From Desulfobacterales bacterium (GTDB lineage Bacteria; Desulfobacterota; Desulfobacteria; Desulfobacterales; C00003060), in contig JABXJX010000002.1 in the NCBI GenBank assembly GCA_013375375.1, positions 1,584 to 65,583 on the forward strand: DNA of 64,000 bases, written 5' to 3'. The notes beneath the pieces were generated by a model. The model was not told where the DNA came from. It was given only the letters and a program-made list of their open reading frames with translations, and did no database searches. Position numbers and translations under genes: made by a program. Positions 10,150 through 63,708 of the stretch are shown piece by piece. Numbering within the stretch: the first letter of the stretch is position 1; each line of letters starts with the position of its first letter.

Positions 10150-10226
<77 letters not shown>

Positions 10227-21349: not shown

Positions 21350-21358
21350 AGCTATCAA

Positions 21359-21530: not shown

Positions 21531-21538
21531 GCTAAGGT

Positions 21539-21570
21539 ACAGCTGGAGTGTTCTCCAGCTGTTTTTTTTT
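21539..21570 (+). terminator. intrinsic terminator (riboswitch expression platform)
   Basis: ACAGCTGGAG-TGTT-CTCCAGCTGT stem-loop followed by T9, located 22 nt before the dapA start. Confidence 0.8.
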
Positions 21571-21592
21571 GCAAACAAAAGGAGGTGCTATT

Positions 21593-38483: not shown

Positions 38484-38576
38484 ATAGCCCAAAGGGTAAA
38501 AGAAGTTGATAGTCTATTGAGAAAAAGCGTGTGACAAAATGTTCGGGATGATGATTTCGCAGAAAGTCATCAAATG

Positions 38577-43370: not shown

Positions 43371-43615
43371 ATCCCGGCTTCTATGCTTGCCTAAAATGAA
43401 ACAAAACTTAGCACAATTCAGCACCTGCTGCCCAAGCCGGTCGACTAAAGCAACTCAGGGCTTTTCCGCCGCAAGGCGGATTGTATTTCATCACTTTCAT
43501 CAGGAAAGTGATGAGAAAAAAATCCATCAAATCCTGTAAATCCTGTCTAACTTAGGAAAGAAAAAGATCAACTATTGAACTGTTATGGAATAACAAGTTG
43601 CGGGGTGTATGTGCT

Positions 43616-45214: not shown

Positions 45215-45287
45215 TCCAGACGTTCATTGTCTCTCTGTAATGCTTTCCAAACATGGATAAACTAAAAAGACTAAAGAGGATTTTTTG

Positions 45288-48207: not shown

Positions 48208-48208
48208 C

Positions 48209-49003
48209 ATGATAGTGGATGCCCACACTCACGTTACTACTGACGGACAGTGGTTTTCAACCAGCTTTGACGCCAGCGAAACATGCTTACTGCGCCAGAT
48301 GGATGAAGAGGGTGTAGAAAAAGCTGTTGTGATCGGCTTACCGGGCTATATTTCCAACGAATCCATAAATGACCTGTGCGAACGTCATAGTGGCCGATTG
48401 CTACCTGTTGCATCTTTTAACCCGGCAGATTATGCAAATTCACAAGAAGTTTCCAGGGAAATTAGAAAACAGCTCAAAGATGAGGGGTTTATTGGAGTAA
48501 AACTACATCCGCGGTTAAACCATTATGATCCATTGGATGCTCGCGTGTTTGCCTTGCTGGATGAAATAGCAAGTTGGCCCAAACCCTTACCCGTCTGGAT
48601 AGACACCCTTTTTTATTATCCAGGCGGGGTTCTCAAAAAACCACCGGTTGAAACGATCCACGAAATGGTCGGCTCTTATCCAGGGATCACATTCTTTCTG
48701 TCGCACGCCGGGGGGCCGGACATACTGAGACTCTCCCAAGCTGTTCGTAGTTGCCCAAACACTTATTTGGAGCTTTCTCTTACTTTGACGCGGTATTTGG
48801 GCAGTTCTGTTGAGATGGATATTCGCTATCTACTGAGAACGTTCGAACAACGTTTGGTCTTTGGTTCCGATTTCCCGGAGGTCAGCCTCTCTCAAGCAAG
48901 GAATGCTTTCGACATACTTGTCAAAGATGCCAAACCCGAAGCAAGACAATCAGTTTTGGGGAATAATTTCTGCAAGATAGTCTTGCAGGAGCCCAATCAA
49001 TGA
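48209..49003 (+). CDS. amidohydrolase-2 family TIM-barrel metal-dependent hydrolase/decarboxylase-like protein
   Basis: MIVDAHTHV N-terminal metal motif, ...KLHP..., SHAGGP and FGSDFP. 1-nt gap from the aminotransferase gene. Confidence 0.7.
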   Translation: MIVDAHTHVTTDGQWFSTSFDASETCLLRQMDEEGVEKAVVIGLPGYISNESINDLCERHSGRLLPVASFNPADYANSQEVSREIRKQLKDEGFIGVKLHPRLNHYDPLDARVFALLDEIASWPKPLPVWIDTLFYYPGGVLKKPPVETIHEMVGSYPGITFFLSHAGGPDILRLSQAVRSCPNTYLELSLTLTRYLGSSVEMDIRYLLRTFEQRLVFGSDFPEVSLSQARNAFDILVKDAKPEARQSVLGNNFCKIVLQEPNQ

Positions 49004-51111
49004 ATCGTCATAACCTTGAAATCCTTGAATGCACCTTACGCGACGGCAGCTATACTATTGACTTCCAATTTACCCCTCGCGACACATACGTCATCGCCGC
49101 CGCCCTTGAGAATGCCGGCTTTAATCTTATCGAAGTGGGACATGGATTAGGCTTAAACGCATCAAGTTCAGGCAAAGGACAGGCAGCAGCAACGGACGAA
49201 GAATACATGAAGGCCGCTGCAAGCACACTCAAACGGGCTCAGTGGGGAATGTTCTTCATCCCAGGCATAGGTCAACATGAAGATCTGAAATTAGCCGCTG
49301 ATTACGGGATGGATTTCGTCCGAATTGGCACTAATGTTACAGAGGTCGAACAATCCAAAGAATATATTGAGCATGCCAAGAAGTTGGGCATGTTCGTTTC
49401 GGCCAACTTAATGAAATCTTACGCCTTGCCGCCCAAAGAACTCTCTATACGGGCAAAGCTTTCGGAAAGGTTCGGTGTTGATCTGGTGTGTCTGGTAGAT
49501 TCTGCGGGGACTATGTTGCCCGAGGATATTCAAAACTATGTGCGAACGATGCAAGATGTTCTTAATATACCAATAGGACTTCATTGCCATGACAATCTTG
49601 CACTGGGTATAGCAAATGTCTTGGCAGCGATCGATTGTGGAGTTCAGCGAATTGATAGCACTCTACAGGGAATGGGACGAGGGGGTGGCAATCCAGCCAC
49701 TGAAGTCTTAGTCAGTGTTTTGAAGAAACAAGGAATTGACCTAAACATTGATCTCAACCGTTTAATGGACGTCAGCGAGCGACTCATAAAACCAATGTTA
49801 CAGGAAAAAGGTTTTGATTCAATCAACATCACTTCGGGCTATGCCGGATTCCATTCCGGTTATCTCAAGACGATTCTCAAATATGCCGACCGCTATAAAG
49901 TTGATCCACGTGACCTGATTGTTGAGGTATGCCGGGCAGATCAAGTTTATGCTCATGAGGAACTTGTCGAAGACATCGCTTCACGGCTGCAACAGCAAGA
50001 AGCTGGTAGAGCGGGTCTGCATATCATTTCATTACCGCATTTTGCTTTTGCTGACGGGAAAGAGATGGAGGCATCGGATGATTCTCTTGCCGGAGCGGTT
50101 GAAAGGGTTGTGACAAAGGCCAGGACTACAGCCAAGAGACGAGGCAAACAGAGCGTTCTTAATATTGTTGCAGCTCCGCAGGCCGCAGAACAAACTATCG
50201 TTTCACGATTCGTGCAGGAAGAGTTTGACTATGTCATTGGCAGTGTAGAGGTTGGCAGCCCCTTGCCACTGGAAGAAATCATCGCAGTTGCTGATGGCGT
50301 GGTGGACATCTTGCTTGTGGATGCCGAACTTAAACCGTACCTCAATGAGCCTTTGTTTACAAAGGGACGTTCTCTTGCAAAGCAAAGCCGGGTGGTGGGC
50401 TACAAAGACTACGATGTCTGGGTACGTAGCGTTGACCAAGATATCCGCATGATGTTGAAGGATATTCGAGGTCGGCAGATCACGGTATGCGGTACGGACA
50501 ATCTGTCATTGAAACTTGTCTTATCCATGCTCGAACAGGGAGCAAGGGTCACACTTACAGGAGCCACCTCCGATAAGCTTGAAGTCTTCGGTGACTCCCT
50601 GAAACGAATGGCTCTCTGTACAGGGTTTCTGGGGATTGAAGCGGATCCTGTTGAGGCGGCCCGGGCGGCCGAGGTGATGGTGTCTTTTTCACGGAGGGAA
50701 CTTCTGGTCAGCCGAGCGATGGTAGAAGTGATGGCTGCCCACGGCATTATATTTGACGGGGGAATCGGTTCTGTGCCGCCTGAGGTAATCGCATACTGCA
50801 ACGAATGCGGTATGCGGATTATCCGACCGGATATGCGTGCTGTATTGGCATGTGAGCTGGCATCATTACTTGGGACAGATCGTACGGTTAATGAATTGAT
50901 GGGGCGAGGAGAAATAGCGGGCGTCCAGGTGGTAGCAGGCGGTTTGGTGGGCAAGTACGGAGATATTGTTGTAGATTCCGTATCGAATCCCTCCCGAGTA
51001 GTAGGTGTAGCTGATGGATGTGGACGGGTTCTATACGTTCCTACAGAATTCACCGATCAGATAGAGGCGGTTGAGCGAGAGATTGTACGGCGGCAAGCTC
51101 TGATCATTTAG
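49000..51111 (+). CDS. HMGL-like (DmpG/pyruvate-carboxyltransferase type) aldolase domain fused to a ~350-aa uncharacterised C-terminal domain
   Basis: ILECTLRDGSYTIDFQF, VRIGT and GLHCHDNLALGIAN..D.TL.GMGRGGGN are HMGL-like TIM-barrel motifs. No family was recognised for the C-terminal half. Confidence 0.7.
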   Translation: MNRHNLEILECTLRDGSYTIDFQFTPRDTYVIAAALENAGFNLIEVGHGLGLNASSSGKGQAAATDEEYMKAAASTLKRAQWGMFFIPGIGQHEDLKLAADYGMDFVRIGTNVTEVEQSKEYIEHAKKLGMFVSANLMKSYALPPKELSIRAKLSERFGVDLVCLVDSAGTMLPEDIQNYVRTMQDVLNIPIGLHCHDNLALGIANVLAAIDCGVQRIDSTLQGMGRGGGNPATEVLVSVLKKQGIDLNIDLNRLMDVSERLIKPMLQEKGFDSINITSGYAGFHSGYLKTILKYADRYKVDPRDLIVEVCRADQVYAHEELVEDIASRLQQQEAGRAGLHIISLPHFAFADGKEMEASDDSLAGAVERVVTKARTTAKRRGKQSVLNIVAAPQAAEQTIVSRFVQEEFDYVIGSVEVGSPLPLEEIIAVADGVVDILLVDAELKPYLNEPLFTKGRSLAKQSRVVGYKDYDVWVRSVDQDIRMMLKDIRGRQITVCGTDNLSLKLVLSMLEQGARVTLTGATSDKLEVFGDSLKRMALCTGFLGIEADPVEAARAAEVMVSFSRRELLVSRAMVEVMAAHGIIFDGGIGSVPPEVIAYCNECGMRIIRPDMRAVLACELASLLGTDRTVNELMGRGEIAGVQVVAGGLVGKYGDIVVDSVSNPSRVVGVADGCGRVLYVPTEFTDQIEAVEREIVRRQALII

Positions 51112-51138
51112 CGGTCCGAACACAGACGGAGGTTTGAG

Positions 51139-51816
51139 ATGCCAAACGGTGTAGTTAATACAAAAATAGAGAGACCTTCCGCCGAGGTGGTGGAACGGTT
51201 TAAAGAATTACCTACTAGTATAATCTCCGATGCGATGAACAGATCGAATGCCATGCATGCAGAGATCAAATGCCTTAATTCGAATATCAAAATGGTTGGA
51301 ACAGCCGTGACAGTCAAAGGAATGGTTGGTTGCAACATAATGAGCCACAAAGCTATATATGTGGCCGAACCTGGAGATGTGATAGTGTTTGATGCGAGAG
51401 GGCATACGGATACATCGGTGTGGGGATTTCTTCAGACGAAGGCTTGTGTGCTTAGAGGAATTACAGGGATTGTGATTGACGGCAGCGTCAGAGATAGTTT
51501 GGAAATCAGGCAATCAGGGCTTCCGGTATTTTGTCGGGGAATCACGCCTGCGGGGCCACACAAAGGGTGGGGAGATAGCGTTAACGTTCCGATCCAATGT
51601 GGCGGTGTGCCTGTCAGCCCAGGCGATATCATTGTCGGTGATGATGATGGCGTAATAGTTGTCCCTGGAGGTCAAGCAACAGAGATATTAAAGAAAGCGG
51701 AGGCAGAGATGACTAAGGAGGAGGATTGGTTTAAAAAGCTAGACGAAGGACAGACCACTTTAGAAATTTTATCCCTGGATGAGAAGATCGCAGAAATGGG
51801 GGTAAAAGTAATATGA
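51139..51816 (+). CDS. RraA-like protein (class II HMG/CHA-aldolase / oxaloacetate-decarboxylase fold)
   Basis: GDVIVFDARG...WG..., IVIDGSVRD and GGVPVSPGDIIVGDDDGVIVVP are RraA-family motifs. Confidence 0.8.
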   Translation: MPNGVVNTKIERPSAEVVERFKELPTSIISDAMNRSNAMHAEIKCLNSNIKMVGTAVTVKGMVGCNIMSHKAIYVAEPGDVIVFDARGHTDTSVWGFLQTKACVLRGITGIVIDGSVRDSLEIRQSGLPVFCRGITPAGPHKGWGDSVNVPIQCGGVPVSPGDIIVGDDDGVIVVPGGQATEILKKAEAEMTKEEDWFKKLDEGQTTLEILSLDEKIAEMGVKVI

Positions 51817-53036
51817 ACAAAATCCTGATGCTTTTGGGCGCAAGCCATTTTTATGCCCCCATTATTAGAGAAATACAAAAACTGGGAACAAAGGTCGTTG
51901 TTACCGACAGGGATCCTGAGGCAGAAGGCTTTCGTTATGCGGATTGTTGTGAAGTTGTCGATATTACGGACTTTGAGAAGTCGCTGGAAGTAGCTCGTAA
52001 ATACCGTATTGACGGCATTATGGCTATAAACGATTTTGGTGTCAGGACAGCCTCTTATATAGCAAATGAACTGGAATTGGTTGGAATTGACATGGAGAGT
52101 GCTATTGCGTCATGTGACAAAGGGAAACAACGGGAGAGGTGGCGCGAGGTGGAAGTGCCACAGCCTGTTTTTGAAATTATAACAGACCTTGAATCAGCAA
52201 CTGTTGCAGCGGAGCAAGTTGGATATCCGCTGGTTATAAAACCAACTGATTCTGGGGGAGCAAGTAGAGGAATCTCAGTAGTCAAACGTATATCAGAACT
52301 TGAATGGGCAATAGATTTTGCAGGGCGTTACGCGCGGACTGGTGAGATCATTTTGGAAAACTATATTGAAGGAATTGAGGCTACCGCTGAATGTTTAATT
52401 TGGAATGGCCATGTGGAAATTCTCGCAGTCTCGGACAAAGTCAAGCCTATAGATACTAAGTACCGTGTAGCGACTAGCCTGAACTATACCTCGTTCTTCC
52501 CAGACGAGGTAATGGCCCAGATACATGATGTGGTGCCAAAGGCGATACGTGCTCTTGGAATTGAACAAGGTGCTGCCCATATCGAACTCGTGATGCGGCC
52601 GGACGGTCGAGTTTGGATGGTTGAGATGGCAGCTCGACCGGGGGGAGGTCACATTTTTCACACCATTGTACCATATGTATCTGGAGTTAACATGCCGCAG
52701 GAATTTGCGAAAATCCTTACAGGGATAGAACCGGAGATAAAACCTAAGTACCAAAAAGGAGCAGTTTACAGGTTTTTTGATCCGCCCAAGGGTAGGTTGA
52801 AAACGGTTCTAGGCCTGGAAAAGGCAGGCGAATTGTCAGGGGTGCTAGCGTTGGGTATTCAGGTGCAGCCAGGCGCCATAATTGGAGACACTATAGGACA
52901 ACACCATCGGCCGGGCTACATCGTTACAGGGGCTGAAACCAGGGATGAGGCTGTAGAAATAGCTAACGCGGTTGAGCAGACTGTAATTTTTGAAATTGAG
53001 TCAAAAGCGAATCCTGCGAGCTTTACTAACACATGA
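51813..53036 (+). CDS. ATP-grasp ligase
   Basis: DK...R, GYPLVIKPTDSGGASRGISVV, ILENYIEG and AHIELVMRPDGRVWMVEMAARPGG. 4-nt overlap with the previous gene. Confidence 0.8.
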   Translation: MNKILMLLGASHFYAPIIREIQKLGTKVVVTDRDPEAEGFRYADCCEVVDITDFEKSLEVARKYRIDGIMAINDFGVRTASYIANELELVGIDMESAIASCDKGKQRERWREVEVPQPVFEIITDLESATVAAEQVGYPLVIKPTDSGGASRGISVVKRISELEWAIDFAGRYARTGEIILENYIEGIEATAECLIWNGHVEILAVSDKVKPIDTKYRVATSLNYTSFFPDEVMAQIHDVVPKAIRALGIEQGAAHIELVMRPDGRVWMVEMAARPGGGHIFHTIVPYVSGVNMPQEFAKILTGIEPEIKPKYQKGAVYRFFDPPKGRLKTVLGLEKAGELSGVLALGIQVQPGAIIGDTIGQHHRPGYIVTGAETRDEAVEIANAVEQTVIFEIESKANPASFTNT

Positions 53037-53230
53037 GACACATGCAGAGGAATTCCATCGTCCCTACAACTAAGGATTGTGACCGAAAGCAGTTTGCAAC
53101 ACGTTGGAAAGTGGCACATAGAATCATATCTACATATCGTTGTAAAAGGAAGGAACCGAATAAGATTTAGGGTTGCCGTGGTTAGATCGTTAATGTTCAG
53201 TTCTATGGAGATTTTTTTGGAGAATCCAAA

Positions 53231-54535
53231 ATGAATTACTTAGCTGAATTAGACAAATGCAATAGGTCTGTCATAACTCAATGGGCGAACAATCATACTA
53301 AACTCGAGAAATGTCCCTGGCTTTGTTACATTAGCGTAACTAATATCTGCAATAGCAGATGTACTGTATGTGCACATGGAAAGGCAATGAGGCGTGATAA
53401 GGGCGCCCTAACATTTAGTATTTTGAAACGGATAATTGGAGAGTTGCCAAACGACGTAAGAAAGATTTACCTCATGAAACAAGGTGAGCCCTTTTTAAGT
53501 AGAAATTTGGAACGTTTTGTAAGTTATATCAGAAAGCAAAAACCACATGTCCATATTGCATTACACACGAACGGAATTTTGGCTAAAAAAGAGCGCGTGG
53601 AAAAGATTCTTCCAGAGATCAATTCGATGGGAATTTCAATTAGCGCGATATCAACGGAAACGTACAAGAAGGTTCACGGAGTTAATAAATTTGAATTGGT
53701 GAAAAGAAATTTGAAAGATATCTCTGAAATACTGTTACGAATGGAGAGCAAAAAGAAGCCACACGTTTTTATCGACTATGTTTCCCAAAAGAATAATGCA
53801 CATGAAGAAAAGCGAGACATTGTTAACTTTTTTGAATCACAATTTCCAGGACTGTCATCGGTTGACTTACACTGGGTTTATAATTTCCAAGGAGAAATAG
53901 AGGAGGGGAACATGGAAGTTTACCACAAGGTACCGTACGATAAATTTCCTTGCTGTGTTTTTCCCTGGTCTTCAATAACGTTCCTCCATGACGGGAAGGT
54001 GAGCTATTGTTTCGTCGAACCGCGAGAAAACCGATTTCTAGGAGATATTACCATCCAAACTTTTGAGGAAATCTGGAACGGAAATGAATATAGGATGTTT
54101 AGGAAAAGGATGGCCAAAGGCCGTTTTGGCGAAATGGCCGATGATGGGATTTATTGTCATAGATGTTCTTGGCTTTGGAGCATGCAGTCTCAGTCGCCCC
54201 GTAATCTGAACTATGGGTATTCTGGAGATTTGAGAAGCAGCTTCCAGTACCCGTCATTCGGTGAGCTGTTGGATTTGCCGATTGAACAAATCTTTGAGAT
54301 CGGCATAGAGTTATACTTGAAAGGAGAGATTCACCGGGCAATGGGTTATTTTGGTTTGGTTCTATCAAGCGGCTGCGACGAAGGGCTTTTCAATGCGTCT
54401 AAAGAAATGAACCAAAAATGCAAGAACGTGTTAAGGAAATATAGATATCTTGCCTTGTGGCGGGAGATGATGGAAGAAGAGGGGTTCGACTCGCATAAAA
54501 AATCCTGCAAGTATTATTCTCTTGGAGAAAATTAA
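53231..54535 (+). CDS. radical SAM enzyme with SPASM/twitch-like C-terminal Cys cluster
   Basis: The CxxxCxxC motif is NICNSRCTVCAHG. Downstream are CCVFPWSSITFLHDGKVSYC, GDITIQTFEEIWNG and YCHRCSW. Confidence 0.8.
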   Translation: MNYLAELDKCNRSVITQWANNHTKLEKCPWLCYISVTNICNSRCTVCAHGKAMRRDKGALTFSILKRIIGELPNDVRKIYLMKQGEPFLSRNLERFVSYIRKQKPHVHIALHTNGILAKKERVEKILPEINSMGISISAISTETYKKVHGVNKFELVKRNLKDISEILLRMESKKKPHVFIDYVSQKNNAHEEKRDIVNFFESQFPGLSSVDLHWVYNFQGEIEEGNMEVYHKVPYDKFPCCVFPWSSITFLHDGKVSYCFVEPRENRFLGDITIQTFEEIWNGNEYRMFRKRMAKGRFGEMADDGIYCHRCSWLWSMQSQSPRNLNYGYSGDLRSSFQYPSFGELLDLPIEQIFEIGIELYLKGEIHRAMGYFGLVLSSGCDEGLFNASKEMNQKCKNVLRKYRYLALWREMMEEEGFDSHKKSCKYYSLGEN

Positions 54536-54539
54536 TGCG

Positions 54540-55817
54540 ATGAAACATCGTGAAATACGTCCGCGGGAGTGGCTGACTGACAGCAAGTTAACAGAAGCTG
54601 GAAATGTCGCGCGGGAAGAATACAAGAGCTATTGCAAGTATCTGGCCGCGTTGGGAATGCCATCTTTTAAGGTGGCAAGAACGAAATATTTCCTTCAGCG
54701 CGCTAACTATTGGACATTACCTGGTGGTTACGCCCTCCCACCGCACACGGTAAATGTTTGTGTGAACAATATATGTAATCTGCGGTGCAGGTATTGTGAC
54801 TTCGGCCAAAAGCATGATGAAACGTTTTACCATCAATACAACGTTGTTGACCGGACAAGGAAGATTGAACTACCTTTGGAGACATGCAAGTCTGTAGTAG
54901 ATCAGGTGAAGTGGTTCAATCCTATAATCAGAGCTTCATTTCGGGAACCACTGCTTTACAAGAATATCCTGCCATTTATCGAATACACAAAAAAGAACAA
55001 CCTACCTTTCTGGCTGTTAACGAATGGATTCAATCTGGCTAGGTTTGCTGAAGATCTGGTCGGGCTTGAGGTAGATTCTGTCAGATTATCTCTGGATGGT
55101 CCAAAAGATATACATGATACGATTAGGGGCGTAAAGAATGCTTACAGCCGGATGATGGAAGGGGTAAAAATTCTTATTGATAAAAGGAGAAACACAGACT
55201 CATGTATGCAAATCGGTTTTTATTTCACTCTTAACGATCAGAATTATGACAGAATTTTAGAAACTGTGGAGGTTTTGGACAATGAGGGAGTCTTAAAAGA
55301 TGTGTTCTTCAATTTTCAATGGCTGTTGTATACGACGAAGAAAATGGCCAAAGAACATAATGAAACCCACGGAAAAGTTTGTGAAGGATATATACAGGAG
55401 TCAACGGTCCACGCAGTAGACATTTATAAGATGGATCTAAAAGTTATGAGTGAACAAGCTAAGATTGTCCAGAGAAAATATCCTGCAGAAAAAGGATACC
55501 GTATTCATTTTAGACCGTCTTTTGAGTATGAAGATCTCGTCAGGTACAGAGAGACCGAAGAATTCTCTGTGGAAGATCCACGATGCAGGGTCCTATGGTA
55601 TAACATGAACATCAATCCTGCAGGTGAGGTGAAGTCTTTCCATCATTGCCTTCTTCCGGTTGTGGGAGATATCAATGAGCAGTCGATTATGGATATATGG
55701 AACGGAGACAATTTTAGAAGACAGAGAAGGCTACTGTTAGAGCATGGAGCATATCAGGGGTGTGCCCGATGCTGGGGTGTGTACTGTCTTTTAGAGGACC
55801 AAAAGAGAAGAGATTAA
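54540..55817 (+). CDS. radical SAM enzyme with SPASM-like domain
   Basis: NNICNLRCRYCDFG; C-terminal CRVLWYNMNINPAGEVKSFHHC, GDINEQSIMDIWNG and GCARCWG. ATG 54540 follows GGAGAAA. Confidence 0.8.
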   Translation: MKHREIRPREWLTDSKLTEAGNVAREEYKSYCKYLAALGMPSFKVARTKYFLQRANYWTLPGGYALPPHTVNVCVNNICNLRCRYCDFGQKHDETFYHQYNVVDRTRKIELPLETCKSVVDQVKWFNPIIRASFREPLLYKNILPFIEYTKKNNLPFWLLTNGFNLARFAEDLVGLEVDSVRLSLDGPKDIHDTIRGVKNAYSRMMEGVKILIDKRRNTDSCMQIGFYFTLNDQNYDRILETVEVLDNEGVLKDVFFNFQWLLYTTKKMAKEHNETHGKVCEGYIQESTVHAVDIYKMDLKVMSEQAKIVQRKYPAEKGYRIHFRPSFEYEDLVRYRETEEFSVEDPRCRVLWYNMNINPAGEVKSFHHCLLPVVGDINEQSIMDIWNGDNFRRQRRLLLEHGAYQGCARCWGVYCLLEDQKRRD

Positions 55818-56133
55818 TTTCTTTGATAACAAGAAAATGTTCATCTAGAGGGCACGTATGCCACAGGATACGCCCCAATTGGTGAGAACGATAGTCATAT
55901 TGTTCACACAGGCAAAGAAATTAGTGTACTGACGGTTTAGGCGGTTTGTGTTGGAATGGTATGAGTTTGACAGCAAAAAGGTTTGTCAATCCAAAAAATA
56001 TTTTAAAAGTTATGGATAGCTTTTGGCAATAAGTGAGTTCAAGCTGCCACGTGAATTAGAAAGGAAGGGTTGAGGTCGTCGAAAATGAGTTGCAATAGTT
56101 ATAGAGCTTATCTCCAAAAGTATTGGATCAAGA

Positions 56134-57018
56134 ATGAAAGATCGCAAGTTTCCCGTCAGCGATTACAAAAGTAAGGATTCCCGTTGGAATGCCTATTACA
56201 GCAGCTTTGACATTGAGTCGTATCTGCGGATATTGGAGTATGATGAAGCCACCCTCTTCATCGACGAACACCTTGGCCCATTACCCAAAGAAAGCTTCAT
56301 CTTGGATATCGGCTGTGGTTCTGGTCGCCATCTGGTTCACCTCAGCAATATGGGCTTTACCAATCTTTTTGGTGTGGATCTAAGTCCTCATGGCATCAGG
56401 AATTTGACTATCCGCCGCCCTGAGATCAAAGCTCAGGTTGCCGATGCCACCAAATTGCCGTTTGATGACAATACATTTGAAGCAATCCTTATGGTAGGGG
56501 TCGTGTATGAGATTGCGAATGTTTCCTTACATGATCAGGTCATAACCGAGATTCGGAGAGTATTGCGTCCTGGTGGACGAGTTGTTTTCATTAATAATTC
56601 ACCATACAACTTTGGTGAGCGGATATTTACCATTACTCAGACAATTTCTGCCTTTGTCAAGAGCTCTCAACTAAAGTTCTTTGTTTGGCGTTATGAGCGC
56701 AAAGATGTTCACACATTGTTTTTGCGTCACGGGCTACGCTTAGTTGAAGAATGGCCTTGCAGTATACGACGTGGGGTGTTTCGATTTTTCTATGGGATCT
56801 TTGTGCCAAAAAACGTGAAAGAAAACCGCAAAAGACGGATAAACAACACCAATGGCCAACCGTATTCCTTGCATGAATACTACCTGGTCAACAAGGATCG
56901 AAGCCTACTTACTCCTTTGGGTAACTATGTGGCCCGGATTTCGGCGCGGGTCGACCCTTTCCTCTTCGCCAATACAATTTGCTACCTATTCAAAAAGAAA
57001 GCCCCTACGTTCAAATAA
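56134..57018 (+). CDS. class I SAM-dependent methyltransferase
   Basis: ILDIGCGSGRH (motif I), DATKLPFDDNTFEAI, and LRPGGRVVF. Confidence 0.8.
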   Translation: MKDRKFPVSDYKSKDSRWNAYYSSFDIESYLRILEYDEATLFIDEHLGPLPKESFILDIGCGSGRHLVHLSNMGFTNLFGVDLSPHGIRNLTIRRPEIKAQVADATKLPFDDNTFEAILMVGVVYEIANVSLHDQVITEIRRVLRPGGRVVFINNSPYNFGERIFTITQTISAFVKSSQLKFFVWRYERKDVHTLFLRHGLRLVEEWPCSIRRGVFRFFYGIFVPKNVKENRKRRINNTNGQPYSLHEYYLVNKDRSLLTPLGNYVARISARVDPFLFANTICYLFKKKAPTFK

Positions 57019-57058
57019 TAAAAGCACAAAATGGTCATGATCAAAAAGGGGGTACTTA

Positions 57059-58009
57059 ATGGATATAATTAAGGATATAGTTTTTGAGTTGACTCTTAGA
57101 TGTAACCTCAGTTGTGCCATGTGTTCGCGACAGTTCCTGAAAAACAAGCCTTCAGACCTAGATTTCGCCTCACTGGAGCGTGTGCTGAGCGATTTGAAGA
57201 CTTTTTACAGCTCGAACCAGATCAATTTTAGTTTCGGGGGCTATGGGGAGCCACTTTTGTACCCGCACTTGTTTGAGGCAATTGAGACAGTTAAAACCAC
57301 ATTCCCACATAGTAATCTAACTATAACGACTAATGGTCATCTGCTGACAAGTTCTTTGATCGATAAATTGATGGTTTCACCGCTGGATTACGTACGCGTG
57401 AGCCTTAACGCTACGTGTGCTGAAGAATACCTGAGACTTATGAATAGCGACAGGTTCGACATGGTTGTATCAAATATCGAGCGTTTTCTTCGCAAGAAGC
57501 AGTCAATAAGGAGCCGGATTAAGGTAGGCATCCAGATCCTGGATACAACGATAAATAGGCAAAAATACCCTGAATACAAAAAGAGGTGGGAAGACCTTCT
57601 TACTGGCGATGATTTTATAACCTATCGCCTGATGGAAAATCGAGGCGGGACTATTGACTCCGTACGTCTTTCAAAGGGTAGCTCTCCAGGCCGCATAAAG
57701 ATGCGGTGGCCCTGCTATGCCCTTTGGTGCCACATTGCAATTGATACCCTGGGCCGCGTTTTTTCTTGCTGCGAAGCCTACACATTCAGGGATGACAGCA
57801 GTCTTTTACAGCTTGGCTTGCTTGAAGAATCGTCCATTGTTGATTTGATCAACTCGGAAAACTTAAAAAGGATGCAGGAGATGCACTTAAGAAATGATTA
57901 TTCTCTCCTGCCGGAGTGCCTAAAATGCACCAAGCCGATCAATTATCCGAACTATTGGGTTCTAAACAACGGTGTTTGGGTCGAAAAAGATGAGAATATT
58001 GCTAATTGA
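57059..58009 (+). CDS. radical SAM enzyme with SPASM-like domain
   Basis: LTLRCNLSCAMCSR; C-terminal WPCYALWCHIAIDTLGRVFSCC...ECLKC. Confidence 0.8.
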   Translation: MDIIKDIVFELTLRCNLSCAMCSRQFLKNKPSDLDFASLERVLSDLKTFYSSNQINFSFGGYGEPLLYPHLFEAIETVKTTFPHSNLTITTNGHLLTSSLIDKLMVSPLDYVRVSLNATCAEEYLRLMNSDRFDMVVSNIERFLRKKQSIRSRIKVGIQILDTTINRQKYPEYKKRWEDLLTGDDFITYRLMENRGGTIDSVRLSKGSSPGRIKMRWPCYALWCHIAIDTLGRVFSCCEAYTFRDDSSLLQLGLLEESSIVDLINSENLKRMQEMHLRNDYSLLPECLKCTKPINYPNYWVLNNGVWVEKDENIAN

Positions 58010-59456
58010 ACCTGAATCGAACTACAAGGCCCCCAATTTGGGGCTTTTGTTCCTCAGTAACGCTATTTCACAGAGTCGTCATGAGGCTTTGTTGCTGGAT
58101 TTTAATGGCAAGCCCATCGATGATCCGGCGACGAGGGTCATGCAACTCATCGATTCCCATGAAATAGCCATTATTGGGATATCGGTTTGTGATGTCAATT
58201 ACCAATGGTCCGTAGATCTTATAAGGCAATTGAAAAAGAAAAGAGCAATCACTGTCGTTGTCGGTGGACCGCAAGTCAACAGTCTAAAAGAATCTGTTCT
58301 AACGGACAACGCGGAAATTGACTACGCATTTGCTGGCGAATGTGAGGAGTCCATTGTCAACTTCCTTGACTTCATTGAGGCTGGCGGTGACGGAAGCGGG
58401 GTCCCCGGTTTACTTTACCGGAACGGAAAAACAATCAAACAGGTTAATCAAAACTTCATTTCATCGCTTGATGAACTGCCTTTCCCAGATTACAGCCATT
58501 TGGGTATTGAACATGTTTCTGGCTACATGCTGCTGACCTCACGGGGGTGTCCGTACCGCTGTACGTTTTGCTGTCGCAATACGGGGAACGTTTGGCGACC
58601 TCGATCGTTGGCCGAGTGTATAGAAGAAATACGCATAGCCAAAGAAAAGCTTGCCATCAAAAGTTTTAGAATTATCGACGCGTCTTTTAATATAAACGAA
58701 CATCGTGTTATCCAGTTTTGTCAACAGGCAAAAGAGTCAAAAAACGAACTGCCGTGGATGGTAAGCGGAATAAGGGCTGATCGTCTCACGGAGAAGTCTG
58801 TTGCTGCGCTTAAAGATGCTGGTTGTGAAATGTTGGCCGTGGGTGTGGAGAGTCTCGACCCCGTGGTATTTCGTCGGATTAACAAAGGAGAAACCATTGC
58901 TGACATTATGCGTGCAATAAACCTGGGTCACAAATATGACATTGAAGTGGCATGTTATATGATTCACGGCTTACCCGGGGATAGCTACGAAAGATCGATA
59001 AGCTACGCCCGCAAATTACAGGCATTGAGACCATCTTACGTCATGTACAATCATGCGATACCTTTTCCCGGCACCGAACTGCATAACTGGGTAACCCGGC
59101 ACGGTCATTTCAACGCTGATTTTTCATGGCTTCAGACTCGTGACGTAGAAAAAGTTGCATTCTGGACAGATGATTTTACGGAAGAAGAGCGGTTGAAATC
59201 CTTCCGCATCATCCAAACCATCACCCACGTAATAAATTTTTCTAGCGAGGACCCTAACGAGCTATCTGCTCTCGAAGCGGAGATTAAAGAGCATGACCCC
59301 GAATATCTTGTTTATCACCTTGATTTTGTCAAAGAGAACTTGAATCGAAAAGGTAATGAGAAAAACTACATTAAACGGTTTCACCAGGAAACCGATATCG
59401 GACGTCGGTCTGATTATACGGGCTGTGTTAATGTAAAGACTCACGAAATGGTCTGA
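57990..59456 (+). CDS. B12-binding-domain radical SAM enzyme
   Basis: The N-terminus (MRILLIEP...PNLGLLFLSNAI...IIGISV...VVVGGP) is a cobalamin-binding Rossmann-like domain. It is followed by SRGCPYRCTFCC. 20-nt overlap with the previous gene. Confidence 0.8.
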   Translation: MRILLIEPESNYKAPNLGLLFLSNAISQSRHEALLLDFNGKPIDDPATRVMQLIDSHEIAIIGISVCDVNYQWSVDLIRQLKKKRAITVVVGGPQVNSLKESVLTDNAEIDYAFAGECEESIVNFLDFIEAGGDGSGVPGLLYRNGKTIKQVNQNFISSLDELPFPDYSHLGIEHVSGYMLLTSRGCPYRCTFCCRNTGNVWRPRSLAECIEEIRIAKEKLAIKSFRIIDASFNINEHRVIQFCQQAKESKNELPWMVSGIRADRLTEKSVAALKDAGCEMLAVGVESLDPVVFRRINKGETIADIMRAINLGHKYDIEVACYMIHGLPGDSYERSISYARKLQALRPSYVMYNHAIPFPGTELHNWVTRHGHFNADFSWLQTRDVEKVAFWTDDFTEEERLKSFRIIQTITHVINFSSEDPNELSALEAEIKEHDPEYLVYHLDFVKENLNRKGNEKNYIKRFHQETDIGRRSDYTGCVNVKTHEMV

Positions 59457-59547
59457 AGTTAACGCGTCTTTCGAAAACATCAAAAATCTTGACCAAGCTG
59501 CATGTGCCGATTCCGATTCAAAACAAAGGAGTGCTTTAGTCGTAAAG

Positions 59548-61494
59548 ATGTGTGGGATTGCCGGCATATATCATCTTGAACGAAAGCCTATTCCGGCACA
59601 CTGCCTGCAGGGTATGTGTGACGTGATGAAACACCGCGGTCCCGACGATGAGGGCTATGTGTTTTTTCATGTCAGAAACGAGCCGTTTAGGGATGAGGGA
59701 TATTGGGTCGAAAAAGGCGCTGATATGCCAGCAGTCCAAGGAGTTGAGGAATGGAGAAATCTATTTGGTGGGAATGACGACTTCAACCTGGCGTTGGGGC
59801 ACAGGCGCTTAGCTGTTATTGATCTGACTTCTGCCGCACATCAACCCATGTCGAATCGGGCCAATGGTATCTGGATAAGCTACAACGGCGAGATATATAA
59901 TTTTAGAGAGCTGCGGCGTGAGCTTGAAAGCAAGGGTCACCACTTCTTTTCTCGCTCGGATACTGAGGTGATAATACACCTGTACGAAGAGTATGGTGAC
60001 GATGGCATAACCAGGTTAAACGGGATATTCGCATTTGCCCTTTGGGATGGGAGGAAGAATCGTTTACTACTGGCTCGTGATCGATATGGGGCCAAACCTT
60101 TATACTATACTATTCAAAATAATATATTGAGCTTTGCTTCAGAAGTAAAAGCCCTCCTCCAGGTAGATGGCATAAATGCCAAACTTAACTACCAGGCATT
60201 GTCAGAATATTTTACCTTTCAAAATACCTTTGGCGACGCCACCCTGTTTGACGGAATAAAACTGCTGGAACCCGGCCATCTTCTGGTGATAGAGGGGAAA
60301 AATATAACTAAGAAGAAATACTGGGATTTTGACTTTGATGATGGTGATGATCAAGGGGAAGCATTCTACATCAAACGGCTTAGAGAGATTTTTGAGCAGG
60401 TGATCGAACGTCAATTGATTTCGGATGTTCCTGTGGGAAGTTACCTGAGCGGGGGGCTTGATTCCGGTAGTATTACTGCATTTGCCTCGAAGTTTATTCC
60501 TCGGTTGATGACTTTTACCGGCGGTTTTGATGTTGCCACTGCTGTGAGTATCGAAAACTTCTTTGATGAGCGTGATAAGGCTGAATTGATATCGCGCGAA
60601 TTCGGCACAGAACATTACCAAATGGTCATTCATGCGGGTGATCTGGAATGGGCCCTGCCAAGAGTAATCCGGCATAGCGAGGATCTGCGTGTAGGCATGT
60701 CTTATCCCCATTATTATCTGTCGCAATTAGCGAGTAAGTTCGTCAAGGTCGTACTTGCCGGACCAGGTGGTGATGAAACCTTGGCCGGTTATCCCTGGAG
60801 ATACGATTTGGTAAAAAATTGTAAATCCTGTCGGGAATTCGAAGAGGTTACCTACCAATACTGGTCGAGGCTTGTTAAAGATCAGGACAAGAAAGAATTC
60901 TTCAGCCCAAATACATTGGAAAGAATAGGAAATCACTTGCCATTTGAATCTTTACAAGGCGTTCTAAGCAACGATTCGAACAGTAACTTTGCCAAAAAAG
61001 CGCTATATTTCGATGCCAAAACGTTCTTGCATGGGATTCTGCTTGTCGAGGATAAATTAAGTATGGCTCATTCTTTAGAGTCAAGAGTACCTTTTTTAGA
61101 TAATGAACTTGTGGACTTTACAACTAAAATGCCATGTAAATATCTCCTCAACGATTCATGGATCCCGACGGCCAAGACCGATATTAATCTCTCTGGAAAG
61201 TACGTTTTACGACGTGCAATGGAAGGTATGTTGCCGAAAGATATTATCGAAAATCGTAAACAGGGTTTTAGTCCGCCGGAGCAATCATGGTATATGCAGC
61301 AGCTTGTCCAGTATATTAAGAGCATCATTCTCTCAGAGCGTAGCCTGGAACGAGGTTTTTTTCAAAAGGTATATCTGGAGAGAATCCTTAATGAACATGT
61401 AAAGGGTAAGGCTAATCATCGTCTTCTGATCTGGTCGCTTCTTAGTTTTGAGTGGTGGAACAGAATTTTTATTGATGGAGAGGGAGTTGAATAG
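59548..61494 (+). CDS. asparagine synthase (glutamine-hydrolysing)-family amidotransferase
   Basis: N-terminal MCGIAG (Cys2 nucleophile), HRRLAVIDL, and the SGGLDS PP-loop; 648 aa. Confidence 0.9.
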   Translation: MCGIAGIYHLERKPIPAHCLQGMCDVMKHRGPDDEGYVFFHVRNEPFRDEGYWVEKGADMPAVQGVEEWRNLFGGNDDFNLALGHRRLAVIDLTSAAHQPMSNRANGIWISYNGEIYNFRELRRELESKGHHFFSRSDTEVIIHLYEEYGDDGITRLNGIFAFALWDGRKNRLLLARDRYGAKPLYYTIQNNILSFASEVKALLQVDGINAKLNYQALSEYFTFQNTFGDATLFDGIKLLEPGHLLVIEGKNITKKKYWDFDFDDGDDQGEAFYIKRLREIFEQVIERQLISDVPVGSYLSGGLDSGSITAFASKFIPRLMTFTGGFDVATAVSIENFFDERDKAELISREFGTEHYQMVIHAGDLEWALPRVIRHSEDLRVGMSYPHYYLSQLASKFVKVVLAGPGGDETLAGYPWRYDLVKNCKSCREFEEVTYQYWSRLVKDQDKKEFFSPNTLERIGNHLPFESLQGVLSNDSNSNFAKKALYFDAKTFLHGILLVEDKLSMAHSLESRVPFLDNELVDFTTKMPCKYLLNDSWIPTAKTDINLSGKYVLRRAMEGMLPKDIIENRKQGFSPPEQSWYMQQLVQYIKSIILSERSLERGFFQKVYLERILNEHVKGKANHRLLIWSLLSFEWWNRIFIDGEGVE

Positions 61495-61532
61495 TGTGAG
61501 GTAAGCGCCTAAAGTGATCTAAGGTGACTAAA

Positions 61533-62489
61533 ATGCCTAAAGTTAATCAAAATAGCTTCAATAACCCCAAACTCCTCGAATTTCCGGGTCGTGTCACCTT
61601 AGAATTAACAAATTACTGCAATTTGAATTGTGTAATGTGTCCGAGGAAGTACATGACAGGCCCCAAGGGGTATTTATCATTTTCTCTTTTTACTGAAATA
61701 ATAGACGAAATCGCAGAACGCGAAAACATCGCTCTTGTTCCTTTCTTCAGAGGGGAATCGTTACTTCATCCCAGATGTATCGACATGCTGGCATATGCTA
61801 AAGAGAATGGAGTTGGCCCTATTCAGTTCGCTACGAACGGCACTCTTATGACTGAAAATATTGCTCGGGATTTAATTGATATAGAGGTGGACTTTGTTTC
61901 TTTTAGTGTTGATTCCATTGATCCAAAGGATTATCGACAAATCAGAAAAGGGGCTGACCTTAAAACCGTACTAAAAAACATCGAATTCTTATGTAATCTA
62001 AAGAAGACAAGAGGAATATCAAAACCTGACATCCAGGTTTCCGTTGTGAAAACAAAAAATACCTACAATGGGATAGAAGATTTTGTTAACTTTTGGCAAC
62101 AAAGGGTTGATCGAGTTCGAGTATATGAAGAGCATTCTAAGGATGGTAATTTTGGCTCTTTGGACAAAGCCGGAGATGATGATGCGGTTTGTGAAAAACG
62201 GCGGCCTTGTTTGAAGCCTTTTACTGACATGGTTATTTATTGGAATGGCTGTGTTGTTCTGTGTAACCATGATTGGGATAAAAAATATGTCATAGGCGAC
62301 GTTAACCAAAGTGCCATTTCAGAAATTTGGCATAATGAGACTTATCGCAAAATCAGAGAAGCGCACCTGGGTAACGGCGAACTCGATGAGGTTTGCAAGG
62401 AATGCGACCACTGGAGGACTTATTATCGTAAAGAAAGTCTTATAGGGGAGGTATATGTCGGTAATTCAGAGGTGTATACAAATGCCTGA
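61533..62489 (+). CDS. radical SAM enzyme with SPASM-like domain
   Basis: LTNYCNLNCVMCPR; C-terminal CLKPFTDMVIYWNGCVVLC, GDVNQSAISEIWHN and CKECDHW. ATG 61533 follows AAGGTGA; GTG 61524 is an alternative start. Confidence 0.8.
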   Translation: MPKVNQNSFNNPKLLEFPGRVTLELTNYCNLNCVMCPRKYMTGPKGYLSFSLFTEIIDEIAERENIALVPFFRGESLLHPRCIDMLAYAKENGVGPIQFATNGTLMTENIARDLIDIEVDFVSFSVDSIDPKDYRQIRKGADLKTVLKNIEFLCNLKKTRGISKPDIQVSVVKTKNTYNGIEDFVNFWQQRVDRVRVYEEHSKDGNFGSLDKAGDDDAVCEKRRPCLKPFTDMVIYWNGCVVLCNHDWDKKYVIGDVNQSAISEIWHNETYRKIREAHLGNGELDEVCKECDHWRTYYRKESLIGEVYVGNSEVYTNA

Positions 62490-63708
62490 TGAGATAATTC
62501 CCATAACACGACCTGTTTTTGATGAGGAGGAAGAACGTGCTATCCCGGAAGTGATAAGATCCGGATGGTTGGTTCAGGGCCCCCGGGTTGCGGATTTTGA
62601 AGATAAGTTTAAGACATTTCTCGGTGTCAAGCATGCCATTGCAACAACCTCTTGTACCACAGCGCTTCATCTTGCTCTACTGGCTGCAGGGATCGGCCCG
62701 AGCGATGAGGTGTTACTGCCTTCCTTTACTTTCATTGCGACCGCCAATGCTGTTGAGTACACAGGGGCCAAGCCTGTATTTATAGATATTGATCTTGCCA
62801 CCTACAACATTGATTCTGAAAAGATATTGGAGTACCTGGACAATCAAAAAGCGATTTACAAACGCCATGCTAAGTGCATCCTCCCTGTCTCTCTTTTTGG
62901 CCTTTGCGCGAATATGGAATCAATTAACAGGATTGCATCTGAAAACGGACTCATAGTGATTGAAGACGCGGCCTGCGGGTTTGGCGCCAAACGAAATGGG
63001 CGCTTCGCTGGAACAGAGGCTTTGGCAGGATGTTTCAGTCTTCATCCCCGCAAGGCGATTACTACTGGGGAAGGGGGAATGGTCGTGACTAACGATGACC
63101 ATTTGGCTGACAAAGTCCGAAAGATGAGGGATCATGGCGGGTCAAAGACAGACCTGGAAAGACATTTACAGAATGGCGGTTCTATGCTTCCCGAATATAA
63201 TATGCTGGGTTTTAACTACCGGATGACGGACTTACAAGGGGCATTGGGCGTAGCCCAAATGGACAAGGCTGACATGATAATAGAGGGGCGACGGAAGGCC
63301 GCTGCAAGATACGATGAGCTTTTGCAAGGGGTAGCTGAGATAACAACACCGTTTGTACCGGAAAGCTATACACATGCTTACCAGTCTTATGTTTGTTTGT
63401 ATAAGGCGGATAGTTCCAAGCTGAAAGATAAAGCGGATATTCACTGGTCCGATGTTGATGTCTGGAACCGTGAGCGCAACCGCCTCATGGCCCGCCTGGA
63501 AAAGAAGGGCATCTCTGTGAGGCAGGGAACACACGCTGTCCATACTTTGGGCTATTACAAGAAAAAATACGGACTTAATGACTATGATTACCCCATGTCC
63601 TATATTGCAGACCGACTATCCATAACCCTTCCACTATATTATGGGATAACCAAAGAAGAACAACTGAGAGTTGTGAATAGTTTGCAGGAGCTTATTAAGA
63701 CTCGGTAA
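62482..63708 (+). CDS. DegT/DnrJ/EryC1/StrS-family sugar aminotransferase (WbpE-like)
   Basis: IPITRPVFDEEE, GPRVADFE, ATTSCTTALHLAL, and SLHPRKAITTGEGGMV (PLP-Lys motif). ATG 62482 overlaps the previous gene by 8 nt. Confidence 0.85.
   Translation: MPDEIIPITRPVFDEEEERAIPEVIRSGWLVQGPRVADFEDKFKTFLGVKHAIATTSCTTALHLALLAAGIGPSDEVLLPSFTFIATANAVEYTGAKPVFIDIDLATYNIDSEKILEYLDNQKAIYKRHAKCILPVSLFGLCANMESINRIASENGLIVIEDAACGFGAKRNGRFAGTEALAGCFSLHPRKAITTGEGGMVVTNDDHLADKVRKMRDHGGSKTDLERHLQNGGSMLPEYNMLGFNYRMTDLQGALGVAQMDKADMIIEGRRKAAARYDELLQGVAEITTPFVPESYTHAYQSYVCLYKADSSKLKDKADIHWSDVDVWNRERNRLMARLEKKGISVRQGTHAVHTLGYYKKKYGLNDYDYPMSYIADRLSITLPLYYGITKEEQLRVVNSLQELIKTR

Follow-up and report, generated by a model that had tools for sequence, protein, structure and literature searches.

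To our knowledge, few radical S-adenosylmethionine (SAM) enzymes act on carbohydrates (BtrN, DesII, BlsE, AprD4, and NeoN), and nearly all of these come from antibiotic pathways. BtrN, the 2-deoxy-scyllo-inosamine dehydrogenase of butirosin biosynthesis (PDB 4M7T), has an amino-carbohydrate as its substrate, and a DegT-family enzyme transaminates the product. We analyzed a stretch of 64,000 nucleotides from a Desulfobacterales bacterium (assembly GCA_013375375.1, contig JABXJX010000002.1, positions 1,584 to 65,583 of the forward strand), referred to here as the window, in which five radical SAM genes are found within 9.3 kb. Four of them, A, B, C, and D (at 53231, 54540, 57059, and 61533 in window numbering, which is used throughout), encode BtrN-like enzymes; the fifth, at 57990, encodes an enzyme with a cobalamin (B12)-binding domain, termed B12-rSAM. 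We consider it probable that these genes belong to a glycosylation island for a glycoconjugate, most likely flagellin, with a variable cassette of radical SAM enzymes that tailor the sugar or its side chain.

The carbohydrate enzymes of the cluster recall the Wbp/Vim pathways and WbpS, known from the linking sugar of Porphyromonas gingivalis and Tannerella forsythia and from Pseudomonas aeruginosa O-antigens, where WbpB, WbpE (DegT), and WbpD-type genes occur with an AsnB of the eps_aminotran_1 kind and the sugar is amino-acylated (PMC7468200). WbpS/WbqG-type AsnB enzymes convert the uronic acids of Wbp-type sugars to uronamides, and the P. gingivalis sugar also bears a seryl group, so that amino-acyl Wbp sugars do exist (PMC7468200). 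Unlike the cluster described here, those pathways contain no radical SAM enzyme, and their amino acid is added by VimA, of the FemAB/acetyltransferase type, and not by an ATP-grasp ligase. Transfer of sugars to flagellin is exemplified by FlmG of Caulobacter, a demonstrated flagellin O-glycosyltransferase that binds flagellin via its N-terminal domain (PMC7591256). FlmG, OGT, and SPINDLY combine N-terminal tetratricopeptide repeats (TPR) with a catalytic domain of the GT-B type of glycosyltransferase (GT), and a TPR-GT protein encoded in the window resembles OGT and SPINDLY in fold and has a similar architecture. It differs from FlmG-type enzymes in its presumed donor, which would not be pseudaminic acid, as the window has neither NeuB nor a cytidylyltransferase. 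Literature searches on radical SAM enzymes with flagellin glycosylation, with O-antigen, or on Twitch enzymes with sugar returned nothing relevant and nothing on the families described below; a search on the Bordetella triamino sugar likewise found nothing.

The radical SAM enzymes of the cluster

Domains were called with Pfam and families with the curated cut-offs of NCBIfam. Five radical SAM domains with the E-values listed in Table 1, packed into 9.3 kb, are not a chance occurrence. The CX3CX2C motif starts at residue 40 in A, 85 in B, 15 in C, 32 in D, and 193 in B12-rSAM (CPYRCTFC), and a C-terminal C...G-x4-C...CxxC pattern is present in A, B, C, and D. Both the motif positions and the Pfam matches bear out the first-pass annotation, which had described four open reading frames (ORFs) with an N-terminal CxxxCxxC and a shared C-terminal module, plus a cobalamin radical SAM enzyme. 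For D, the public metagenome gene call (P0001, 278 amino acids) begins at 61653 and loses the CX3CX2C motif. When 23 homologues were aligned, the longer form (61524/61533) was the one supported, and the database entry is therefore truncated.

The four enzymes had also been called SPASM-like. SPASM maturases of ribosomally synthesized and post-translationally modified peptides (RiPPs) and the anaerobic sulfatase-maturating enzymes (anSME) (TIGR04085) do resemble A to D in their superfamily fold and in the opening half of the motif, C-x9-15-G-x4-C...CxxC, and the Pfam SPASM model matches all four. We compared them with the seven-Cys SPASM definition (CX9-15GX4C, gap, CX2CX5CX3C, gap, C, binding two auxiliary 4Fe-4S clusters) and with the Twitch definition, a truncated SPASM with one auxiliary cluster held by four Cys (C169, C187, C232, and C235 in BtrN). 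In A to D, the CX2CX5CX3C block is reduced to CxxC and the final C part is missing, which points to a single auxiliary cluster. The 23-homologue alignment gave 32, 36, and 39 plus 229, 247, 291, and 294 as the invariant Cys of the D family, arranged as C229-x17-C247-x43-C291-x2-C294. BtrN shares this arrangement, a CX3CX2C motif followed by C-x17-C-x43/44-CxxC as a single auxiliary site. Equivalent patterns were found in the A family (40, 44, and 47 plus 242, 260, 309, and 312), in the B family (85, 89, and 92 plus 355, 376, 414, and 417 in the numbering of the 431-amino-acid ORF), and in the C family, where five C-terminal Cys are conserved (15, 19, and 22 plus 219, 237, 238, 287, and 290). 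Across the four families the C-terminal pattern reads C-x17-20-C-x37-49-CxxC. To judge by these residues, A to D are BtrN-type, one-cluster Twitch enzymes and not full SPASM enzymes, so that the SPASM label holds for the Pfam match and fails for the seven-Cys motif.

Comparison with solved structures pointed the same way. The D-family profile matched both domains of BtrN (E = 1.7e-20), and each of the four auxiliary Cys fell opposite its BtrN counterpart. In sequence searches of the PDB, BtrN was the best match for A (5.9e-11), C (2.3e-06), and D, and the second match for B. An AlphaFold2 (AF2) model of D (pLDDT, the model's own confidence measure, 81) retrieved DesII, BtrN, SuiB, and BlsE as the top Foldseek matches; DesII, BtrN, and BlsE are all sugar-modifying enzymes. 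A to D differ from BtrN in being 50 to 165 residues longer and in lying in nucleotide-sugar/glycan clusters, not in a 2-deoxystreptamine pathway. Among eight cluster proteins searched against NCBIfam, no radical SAM enzyme reached a curated cut-off (best, W_rSAM_matur, 131 versus 380 bits), and the remote relatives of B are likewise without a curated family. Membership of a well-characterized sugar-modifying subgroup, considered in the first-pass annotation, is thus half right: BtrN is the nearest solved relative, and no curated family cut-off is reached. The D family has no spare invariant Cys for H-atom donation; D would for this reason fit a dehydrogenase better than an epimerase of the NeoN or PoyD type.

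B12-rSAM has the domains of a class B radical SAM enzyme (PF02310, 51.4 bits against a cut-off of 32.1; PF04055, 79.9 bits), namely the N-terminal B12-binding domain and radical SAM core seen in AprD4, HpnJ, GenK, and Fom3-type methylases. Its best PDB match (1.5e-17), and so its nearest solved structure, is AprD4, which acts on an aminoglycoside sugar and is reported not to use B12 as a methyl carrier. B12-rSAM falls below every curated cut-off (best, HpnJ, 122 bits against 578; AprD4 model, 72 bits against 500); it may methylate, dehydrate, or rearrange its substrate.

The first-pass annotation had proposed that A to D arose by duplication and divergence. Shared ancestry is supported for A and D, whose families hhalign found to be homologous over their full length (99.8%, E = 4e-30, 22% identity). 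Local paralogy is not: A to D are only 22 to 25% identical to each other, and closer orthologues of each (50 to 77% identity) are found in other phyla, on which grounds we rejected a recent tandem duplication. D has 581 relatives (up to 77% identity), whereas A belongs to a rare family (54 proteins, 39 to 64% identity). B is 46 to 72% identical to its counterparts in other loci; only four 50%-cluster representatives exceed 39% identity, and relaxing the search to E<=1e-30 widens the family to 179. C is 54 to 59% identical to its counterparts in other loci, and the B and C families, like that of A, are rarer than D. These identities indicate that the split among A to D is ancient and that the genes travel as separate modules.

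Conserved neighbors and the search for a peptide precursor

We scanned one genome per species for D, which yielded 80 loci, and counted gene contexts over 82 D loci (here and below, loci are numbered with the prefix L). D occurs in Desulfobacterota, Nitrospinota, Planctomycetota, Omnitrophota, Lachnospiraceae (including Dorea sp. 5-2), Veillonellaceae, Campylobacterota, Nitrospirota, Acidobacteriota, and an Altiarchaeales archaeon. Its hosts in Desulfobacterota, Lachnospiraceae, Planctomycetota, and Campylobacterota and the archaeon are anaerobes; culturable ones with D and AsnB include Dethiosulfatarculus sandiegensis SPR (L037) and Dorea sp. 5-2 (L059). An AsnB-type gene lies near D in 70 of the 82 loci, always on the same strand, and a DegT gene in 64, directly downstream of D in 46. 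When only the loci with 10 kb on both sides were considered (n = 34), every one had AsnB, 27 had DegT, 20 had a WbpD-like and 16 a WbpB-like gene. The WbpB/WbpD pair, fused or separate, is thus near D in 16 to 20 of the 34. This lock between AsnB and a radical SAM enzyme distinguishes the family from Wbp/Vim. Genes for UDP-sugar 6-dehydrogenase, formyltransferase, NeuB-like proteins, cytidylyltransferase, and glycosyltransferases recur around D, and a WbpA-like gene is present in 8 of the 34 loci. Of the Wbp set for 2,3-diamino-uronic acids, the window holds the WbpB/WbpD-like fusion and DegT, all below the equivalog cut-offs. The idea that D replaces WbpB was rejected, because WbpB-like genes co-occur with D in 16 of the 34 loci and in the window itself.

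A has a different partner. Wherever the flank of an A locus was long enough, the gene immediately upstream of A encodes an ATP-grasp ligase (the window, L018, L085 from a Maridesulfovibrio genome, L086/93, L087, L089/90, L091/92, L094, L096, and L098). In PylB-PylC, radical SAM tailoring of an amino acid is similarly paired with an ATP-grasp ligase; the analogy is one of gene logic only, and A is unlike PylB in sequence. An Amidohydro_2 gene is nearly always found in A loci; L098 also has the HMGL, aminotransferase, and RraA genes, and L018 and L085 have some of them. B follows A in eight kinds of locus. The block of methyltransferase, C, and B12-rSAM comes after A-B in L010 and L089/90; in L010, L035, and L089, B and C are separated by a methyltransferase orthologue (56 to 60% identity), and B12-rSAM orthologues were found in L010 and L089. 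The protein P0308 (879 amino acids) is a natural fusion of a B12-binding radical SAM N-terminal half with a B-like Twitch C-terminal half, which suggests that B12-rSAM and the B-like enzyme may act together. Loci with A, B, or C also hold WbqC, WbmS-like, formyltransferase, HisH/HisF-like, and epimerase genes. These neighbors agree with the first-pass annotation in placing the radical SAM enzymes among enzymes of sugar and amino-acid metabolism.

The TPR-GT protein would link the cluster to protein glycosylation. Its C-terminal 400 residues gave no Pfam match, and a PDB sequence search with this domain found none. Its AF2 model (pLDDT 90.9) retrieved SPINDLY and OGT as the top Foldseek matches, followed by the GT4 enzymes MshA and SPS, and distant homologues carry PF00534. 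In L008, from a Syntrophales metagenome-assembled genome (MAG), the gene order is FliD, flagellin, GT2-TPR, TPR-GT, AsnB, D, DegT, WbpD-like, and WbpB-like, followed by chemotaxis genes. Giant flagellins are encoded 6 to 8 kb from the TPR-GT orthologue in L004 and L099. These are about 800 to 935 amino acids long (L004:18681-20969; L099:17971-20400 and 21281-end), and those of L099 show faint Pfam matches to left-handed beta-helix (LbH/Hexapep) repeats in their central region.

The number of genes between TPR-GT and asnB is 0 in L008, 3 in L004 and L006, 5 in L003, and 10 in the window; this stretch is a hypervariable tailoring cassette. Two further TPR-GT orthologues have other neighbors. L100 (4615-13897) carries two radical SAM genes, RraA, ATP-grasp, Amidohydro_2, and B12-rSAM genes and then transposases, whereas L101 (3057-9985) carries an acyl carrier protein, a ketoreductase, an FkbH-like protein, a phosphopantetheinyl transferase, and a B12-rSAM set. 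The tailoring cassette is highly mosaic.

Two spacers, which the first-pass annotation had singled out as the only places that could hold a peptide precursor, are indeed the sole intergenic gaps of more than 100 bp within the operon (gaps 1 and 2 in Table 1). The small ORFs reported in them, 53042-53167 (41 amino acids) and 56085-56174 (29 amino acids), exist as described. In tblastn searches of every small ORF of both gaps against the 82 loci, no syntenic match was found; the best E-value was 0.036, at another place and on the other strand (0.059 for the gap 1 ORFs). When 246 small ORFs from 15 loci, namely the window cluster and 14 related loci carrying A, B, or C, were compared all against all, no cross-locus family emerged. 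The sole cross-locus matches were antisense to merR or came from one pair of identical contigs. The first-pass annotation had asked whether homologous clusters keep the small ORFs, and in this comparison they do not; its statement that there is no visible peptide substrate stands. In syntenic loci the gaps measure 1 to 134 bp or are absent: ATP-grasp and A overlap in L018, which removes gap 1, and gap 2, between B and the methyltransferase, shrinks to 23 bp in L035 and 134 bp in L010. Rfam searches at E<=1 found no element in either gap, and a promoter/terminator scan of the gaps stayed at background level. In a Bacteroidota MAG, a 56-amino-acid gene is called between B-like and C-like radical SAM genes, at the place of the window's methyltransferase (L086:12534-12704); no match to it turned up among the small ORFs of the 15 loci compared, of which L086 was one.

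Other signs of peptide maturation were looked for. Neither PF05402 (PqqD) nor any other RiPP recognition element (RRE) was matched in the cluster proteins at E<=0.01, and C and D have no room for an N-terminal RRE because their CX3CX2C motifs start at residues 15 and 32. No sulfatase partner, as expected for anSME, is encoded in the window, and the four-Cys pattern is also contrary to the two auxiliary clusters of anSME. A to D thus differ from SPASM maturases in lacking an RRE, a precursor, and a sulfatase partner, and by these features the cluster is not a RiPP cluster.

Gene inventory and other features of the window

The genes of the cluster are listed in Table 1. MerR orthologues also stand at the head of L004 and L018. 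The best NCBIfam match of the WbpB/WbpD-like fusion was UDP-GlcNAc 3-dehydrogenase (180 bits, below cut-off). An orthologue of the class I/II aminotransferase (47014) lies in the equivalent block of L098. The HMGL/DmpG aldolase-like protein (49000), of which the C-terminal ~370 amino acids are without domain assignment, has orthologues in L018 (77% identity), L085, and L098. Orthologues of the RraA-like protein (51139) were found in L096 and L098 (53 to 54% identity), weaker RraA-like proteins in L089/90 and L094 (24 to 29%), and a Pfam RraA-like gene also in L100. The ATP-grasp ligase of the window has a weak PylC-like_N match (E = 0.0014), and the ligases of related loci carry PylC-like_N. 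The window AsnB scored 419.9 bits on TIGR03108 (eps_aminotran_1, the WbpS/WbqG family), against a cut-off of 816.9; its gene neighborhood is consistent with this family. Beyond DegT, a near-identical metagenome scaffold continues with an ATPase gene and a GT1-type gene.

Table 1. Genes and spacers of the cluster, in window numbering
Feature	Position	Strand	Basis
MerR-family regulator, cluster head	43044..43370	+	NCBIfam MerR/HspR-like, below cut-off
WbpB-like oxidoreductase::WbpD-like hexapeptide acetyltransferase fusion	43598..45214	+	Pfam GFO_IDH_MocA + Hexapep
TPR + GT-B protein, putative protein O-glycosyltransferase (FlmG/OGT-like architecture)	45285..46946	+	Pfam TPR, fold matches
Class I/II aminotransferase, amino-acid branch	47014..48207	+	Pfam Aminotran_1_2 8.8e-75; aspartate-aminotransferase-like, below cut-off
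Amidohydrolase_2 family enzyme	48209..49003	+	Pfam 6.5e-22; with ATP-grasp and A in most A loci
4-Hydroxy-2-oxovalerate-aldolase-like protein (HMGL/DmpG)	49000..51111	+	Pfam HMGL-like + DmpG_comm; passes TIGR03217, 316 versus 286 bits
RraA-like aldolase/decarboxylase	51139..51816	+	Pfam 5.9e-43; CHA aldolase/oxaloacetate decarboxylase model 170 bits, cut-off 179
ATP-grasp enzyme, L-amino-acid-ligase type	51813..53036	+	Pfam ATP-grasp + LAL_C2
Gap 1, intergenic spacer	53037..53230	.	no conserved ORF
Radical SAM A, predicted Twitch type, extra conserved C-terminal region of ~120 amino acids	53231..54535	+	Pfam Radical_SAM 1.5e-15, SPASM 2.7e-11
Radical SAM B, predicted Twitch type, N-terminal extension of ~80 amino acids	54522/54540..55817	+	Pfam Radical_SAM 4.2e-18, SPASM 3.3e-10
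Gap 2, intergenic spacer	55818..56133	.	no conserved ORF
Class I SAM methyltransferase	56134..57018	+	Pfam Methyltransf_11 7.8e-20
Radical SAM C, predicted Twitch type	57059..58009	+	Pfam Radical_SAM 2.9e-15, SPASM 3.4e-08
B12-rSAM, B12-binding-domain radical SAM enzyme, class B	57972/57990..59456	+	Pfam Radical_SAM 3.2e-22, B12-binding 1.1e-13
AsnB-type (WbpS-like) glutamine amidotransferase	59548..61494	+	passes generic TIGR01536
Radical SAM D, predicted BtrN-like Twitch type	61524/61533..62489	+	Pfam Radical_SAM 2.1e-19, SPASM 3.2e-15
DegT/DnrJ/EryC1 sugar aminotransferase	62455..63708	+	Pfam 2.2e-103; PseC-like 310 bits, below cut-off

The first 43 kb of the window consist of housekeeping genes, among which several features were recorded. 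A stand-alone YcaO domain protein (2.2e-72) is fused to C-terminal TPR repeats (4601-6328, +). The glutamate synthase large subunit is encoded by two ORFs that differ in frame, with the break inside the amidotransferase domain (142-921 and 933-4511, +; GATase_2 1-242 and 271-417); a frameshift, an assembly error, or a truly split gene could account for this. A lysine riboswitch (21357-21532, +; 99.9 bits) lies directly upstream of a gene of the dihydrodipicolinate synthase (DHDPS) family (21548-22630), and a tRNA gene is at 10150-10223. A Fur-family regulator is fused to a FeoA domain (30166-30855, -) beside FeoB (27758-29923, -). A UvrD/REP helicase of 1139 amino acids (35073-38492, -) has no Pfam match over its first ~470 residues.

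A proposed glycosylation island and the competing explanations

From the domains, Cys patterns, synteny, and absence of a precursor described above, we infer substrates, an order of steps, and a flagellin target for an island that would extend from 43044 to beyond 64000. Its conserved frame would comprise the WbpB/WbpD-like fusion, DegT, the WbpS-like AsnB, and D, together giving a nucleotide sugar of the 2,3-diamino-type hexuronamide kind, which the TPR GT-B enzyme would transfer onto a protein. The variable cassette would span 47014-59456, between the transferase gene and asnB. One branch of it (aminotransferase, Amidohydro_2 enzyme, 4-hydroxy-2-oxovalerate-type aldolase, and RraA-like aldolase) would make a small amino or keto acid, and the ATP-grasp ligase would attach that acid by an amide bond; A, B, C, the SAM methyltransferase, and B12-rSAM would tailor the sugar or the acyl side chain. 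In A to D, a 5'-deoxyadenosyl radical would take an H atom from a small molecule, and the auxiliary [4Fe-4S] cluster of the four Cys would accept the electron. For D, we consider dehydrogenation of a secondary alcohol on the amidated sugar most likely, and the product may pass to the neighboring DegT; by likeness to BtrN, the adjacency of D and DegT suggests oxidation followed by transamination. B12-rSAM most likely C-methylates, or it may act on a diol as AprD4 does.

A bolder version of this scheme, which we regard as rather unlikely, would have AsnB and D, with the usual DegT, form an oxygen- and NAD-independent route to a 2,3,4-triamino-type hexuronamide. The C6 carboxylate would be amidated first, D would make a 4-keto intermediate, and DegT would install the amine. 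Speculatively, AsnB would be locked to D because amidation stops the 4-keto intermediate from decarboxylating as 4-keto-uronates do. A, B, C, and B12-rSAM would then radically tailor, by C-methylation, oxidation, or cyclization, an aminoacyl side chain derived from a gamma-hydroxy/keto acid and attached by the ATP-grasp ligase, and the product would be the first protein (flagellin) glycan tailored by radical SAM enzymes.

Several observations weigh against the proposed flagellin glycosylation island. A BLAST and small hidden Markov model (HMM) search for flagellin over all 82 D loci placed one within 10 kb in only three (L004, L007, and L008). The TPR-GT orthologue loci L100 and L101 have none within 10 kb, and none is encoded in the window, in the 3 kb that follow, or on the source contig. 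In most of the D family, a polysaccharide or a different protein may serve as the acceptor. Seven of the 34 full-flank D loci have no nearby DegT, which weakens a strict coupling of D to DegT. The window cluster has no UDP-GlcNAc 6-dehydrogenase (WbpA-like), so that the uronic-acid step would have to be encoded at another place. Identity to BtrN is about 18%, with no curated cut-off reached, so that its chemistry is not confidently transferable, and with the D model the RiPP enzymes SuiB and SkfB had Foldseek scores near those of the sugar enzymes.

These points bear most directly on the possibility that equivalent sugar-tailoring chemistry feeds a polysaccharide (O-antigen, capsule, or surface layer [S-layer] glycan) and not flagellin, which we think unlikely, if still worth serious consideration. 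Besides the lack of a flagellin gene in the window, flagellin is missing from most D and A loci, which contain genes typical of polysaccharide loci (WbqC, WbmS-like, formyltransferase, GT1/GT2, and deacetylase). However, neither Wzx/Wzy, nor an ABC exporter, an initiating phosphoglycosyltransferase, or a chain-length regulator is encoded between 43 and 64 kb or in the following 3 kb; the architecture of the transferase is that of OGT/FlmG, and the closest frames (L004, L008, and L099) are linked to flagellin. That same protein-type transferase argues against a diffusible aminoglycoside-like or aminoacyl-sugar natural product, which we judge improbable. Such a product would be in keeping with BtrN and AprD4, both from aminoglycoside pathways, as the best solved relatives, with a MerR regulator at the head of the cluster, and with the set of DegT, ATP-grasp, AsnB-like, and methyltransferase genes, which recalls butirosin-type tailoring. 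It is opposed by the absence of a 2-deoxy-scyllo-inosose synthase, a resistance gene, or an exporter from the 43- to 64-kb region, by orthologous frames embedded in flagellar and chemotaxis loci, and by a cassette variability typical of surface-glycan loci.

The remaining alternatives give the radical SAM enzymes a polypeptide substrate. They might act directly on flagellin or another surface protein, encoded in full length elsewhere, as anSME acts on sulfatases. Related islands do adjoin flagellin and FliD, a TPR protein-binding domain is present in the cluster, and anSME-type enzymes, which need no RRE, appear among the Foldseek matches of D. Yet D is tied to AsnB and DegT in flagellin-free loci and A to an ATP-grasp ligase and small-molecule aldolases, the four conserved Cys do not match the two auxiliary clusters of anSME, and the TPR domain is part of the glycosyltransferase, not of any radical SAM enzyme; we consider direct action on a protein decidedly improbable. 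Least probable of all, and in our estimate very much so, is a RiPP cluster whose precursor gene is tiny, unconserved, or outside the cluster. The Pfam SPASM matches of A to D, the many weak NCBIfam matches to RiPP maturases (B12-rSAM scored 102 bits on the RiPP C-methyltransferase model TIGR03975), the resemblance of the AsnB-like gene to lasso cyclases (233 bits), and the small ORFs that do occur in the gaps all speak for it. All RiPP-type NCBIfam matches, however, are far below the cut-offs, the conserved auxiliary Cys number only four, searches for a PqqD/RRE domain were negative, the 15 loci share no small ORF, and the gaps disappear in L018 and L035. Sugar-enzyme partners are found in 34 of 34 loci, and the cluster has no protease or transporter typical of RiPP clusters.

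A glycosylation island with a radical SAM cassette, the reading we prefer, is familiar as a kind of system; what sets this one apart is the apparent recruitment of uncharacterized Twitch-type and B12-type radical SAM families to glycan tailoring. For genome mining, the cluster means that a SPASM match should not be taken as a sign of a RiPP in surroundings of this kind. The proposed enzyme-substrate pairs are concrete and clonable. Should the triamino sugar and side-chain chemistry be true, several new families of sugar-acting radical SAM enzymes would be added, spread over more than 10 phyla and including gut Lachnospiraceae and Desulfovibrio. If the island is confirmed, it would mean that anaerobes diversify their surface and flagellar glycans by radical chemistry.

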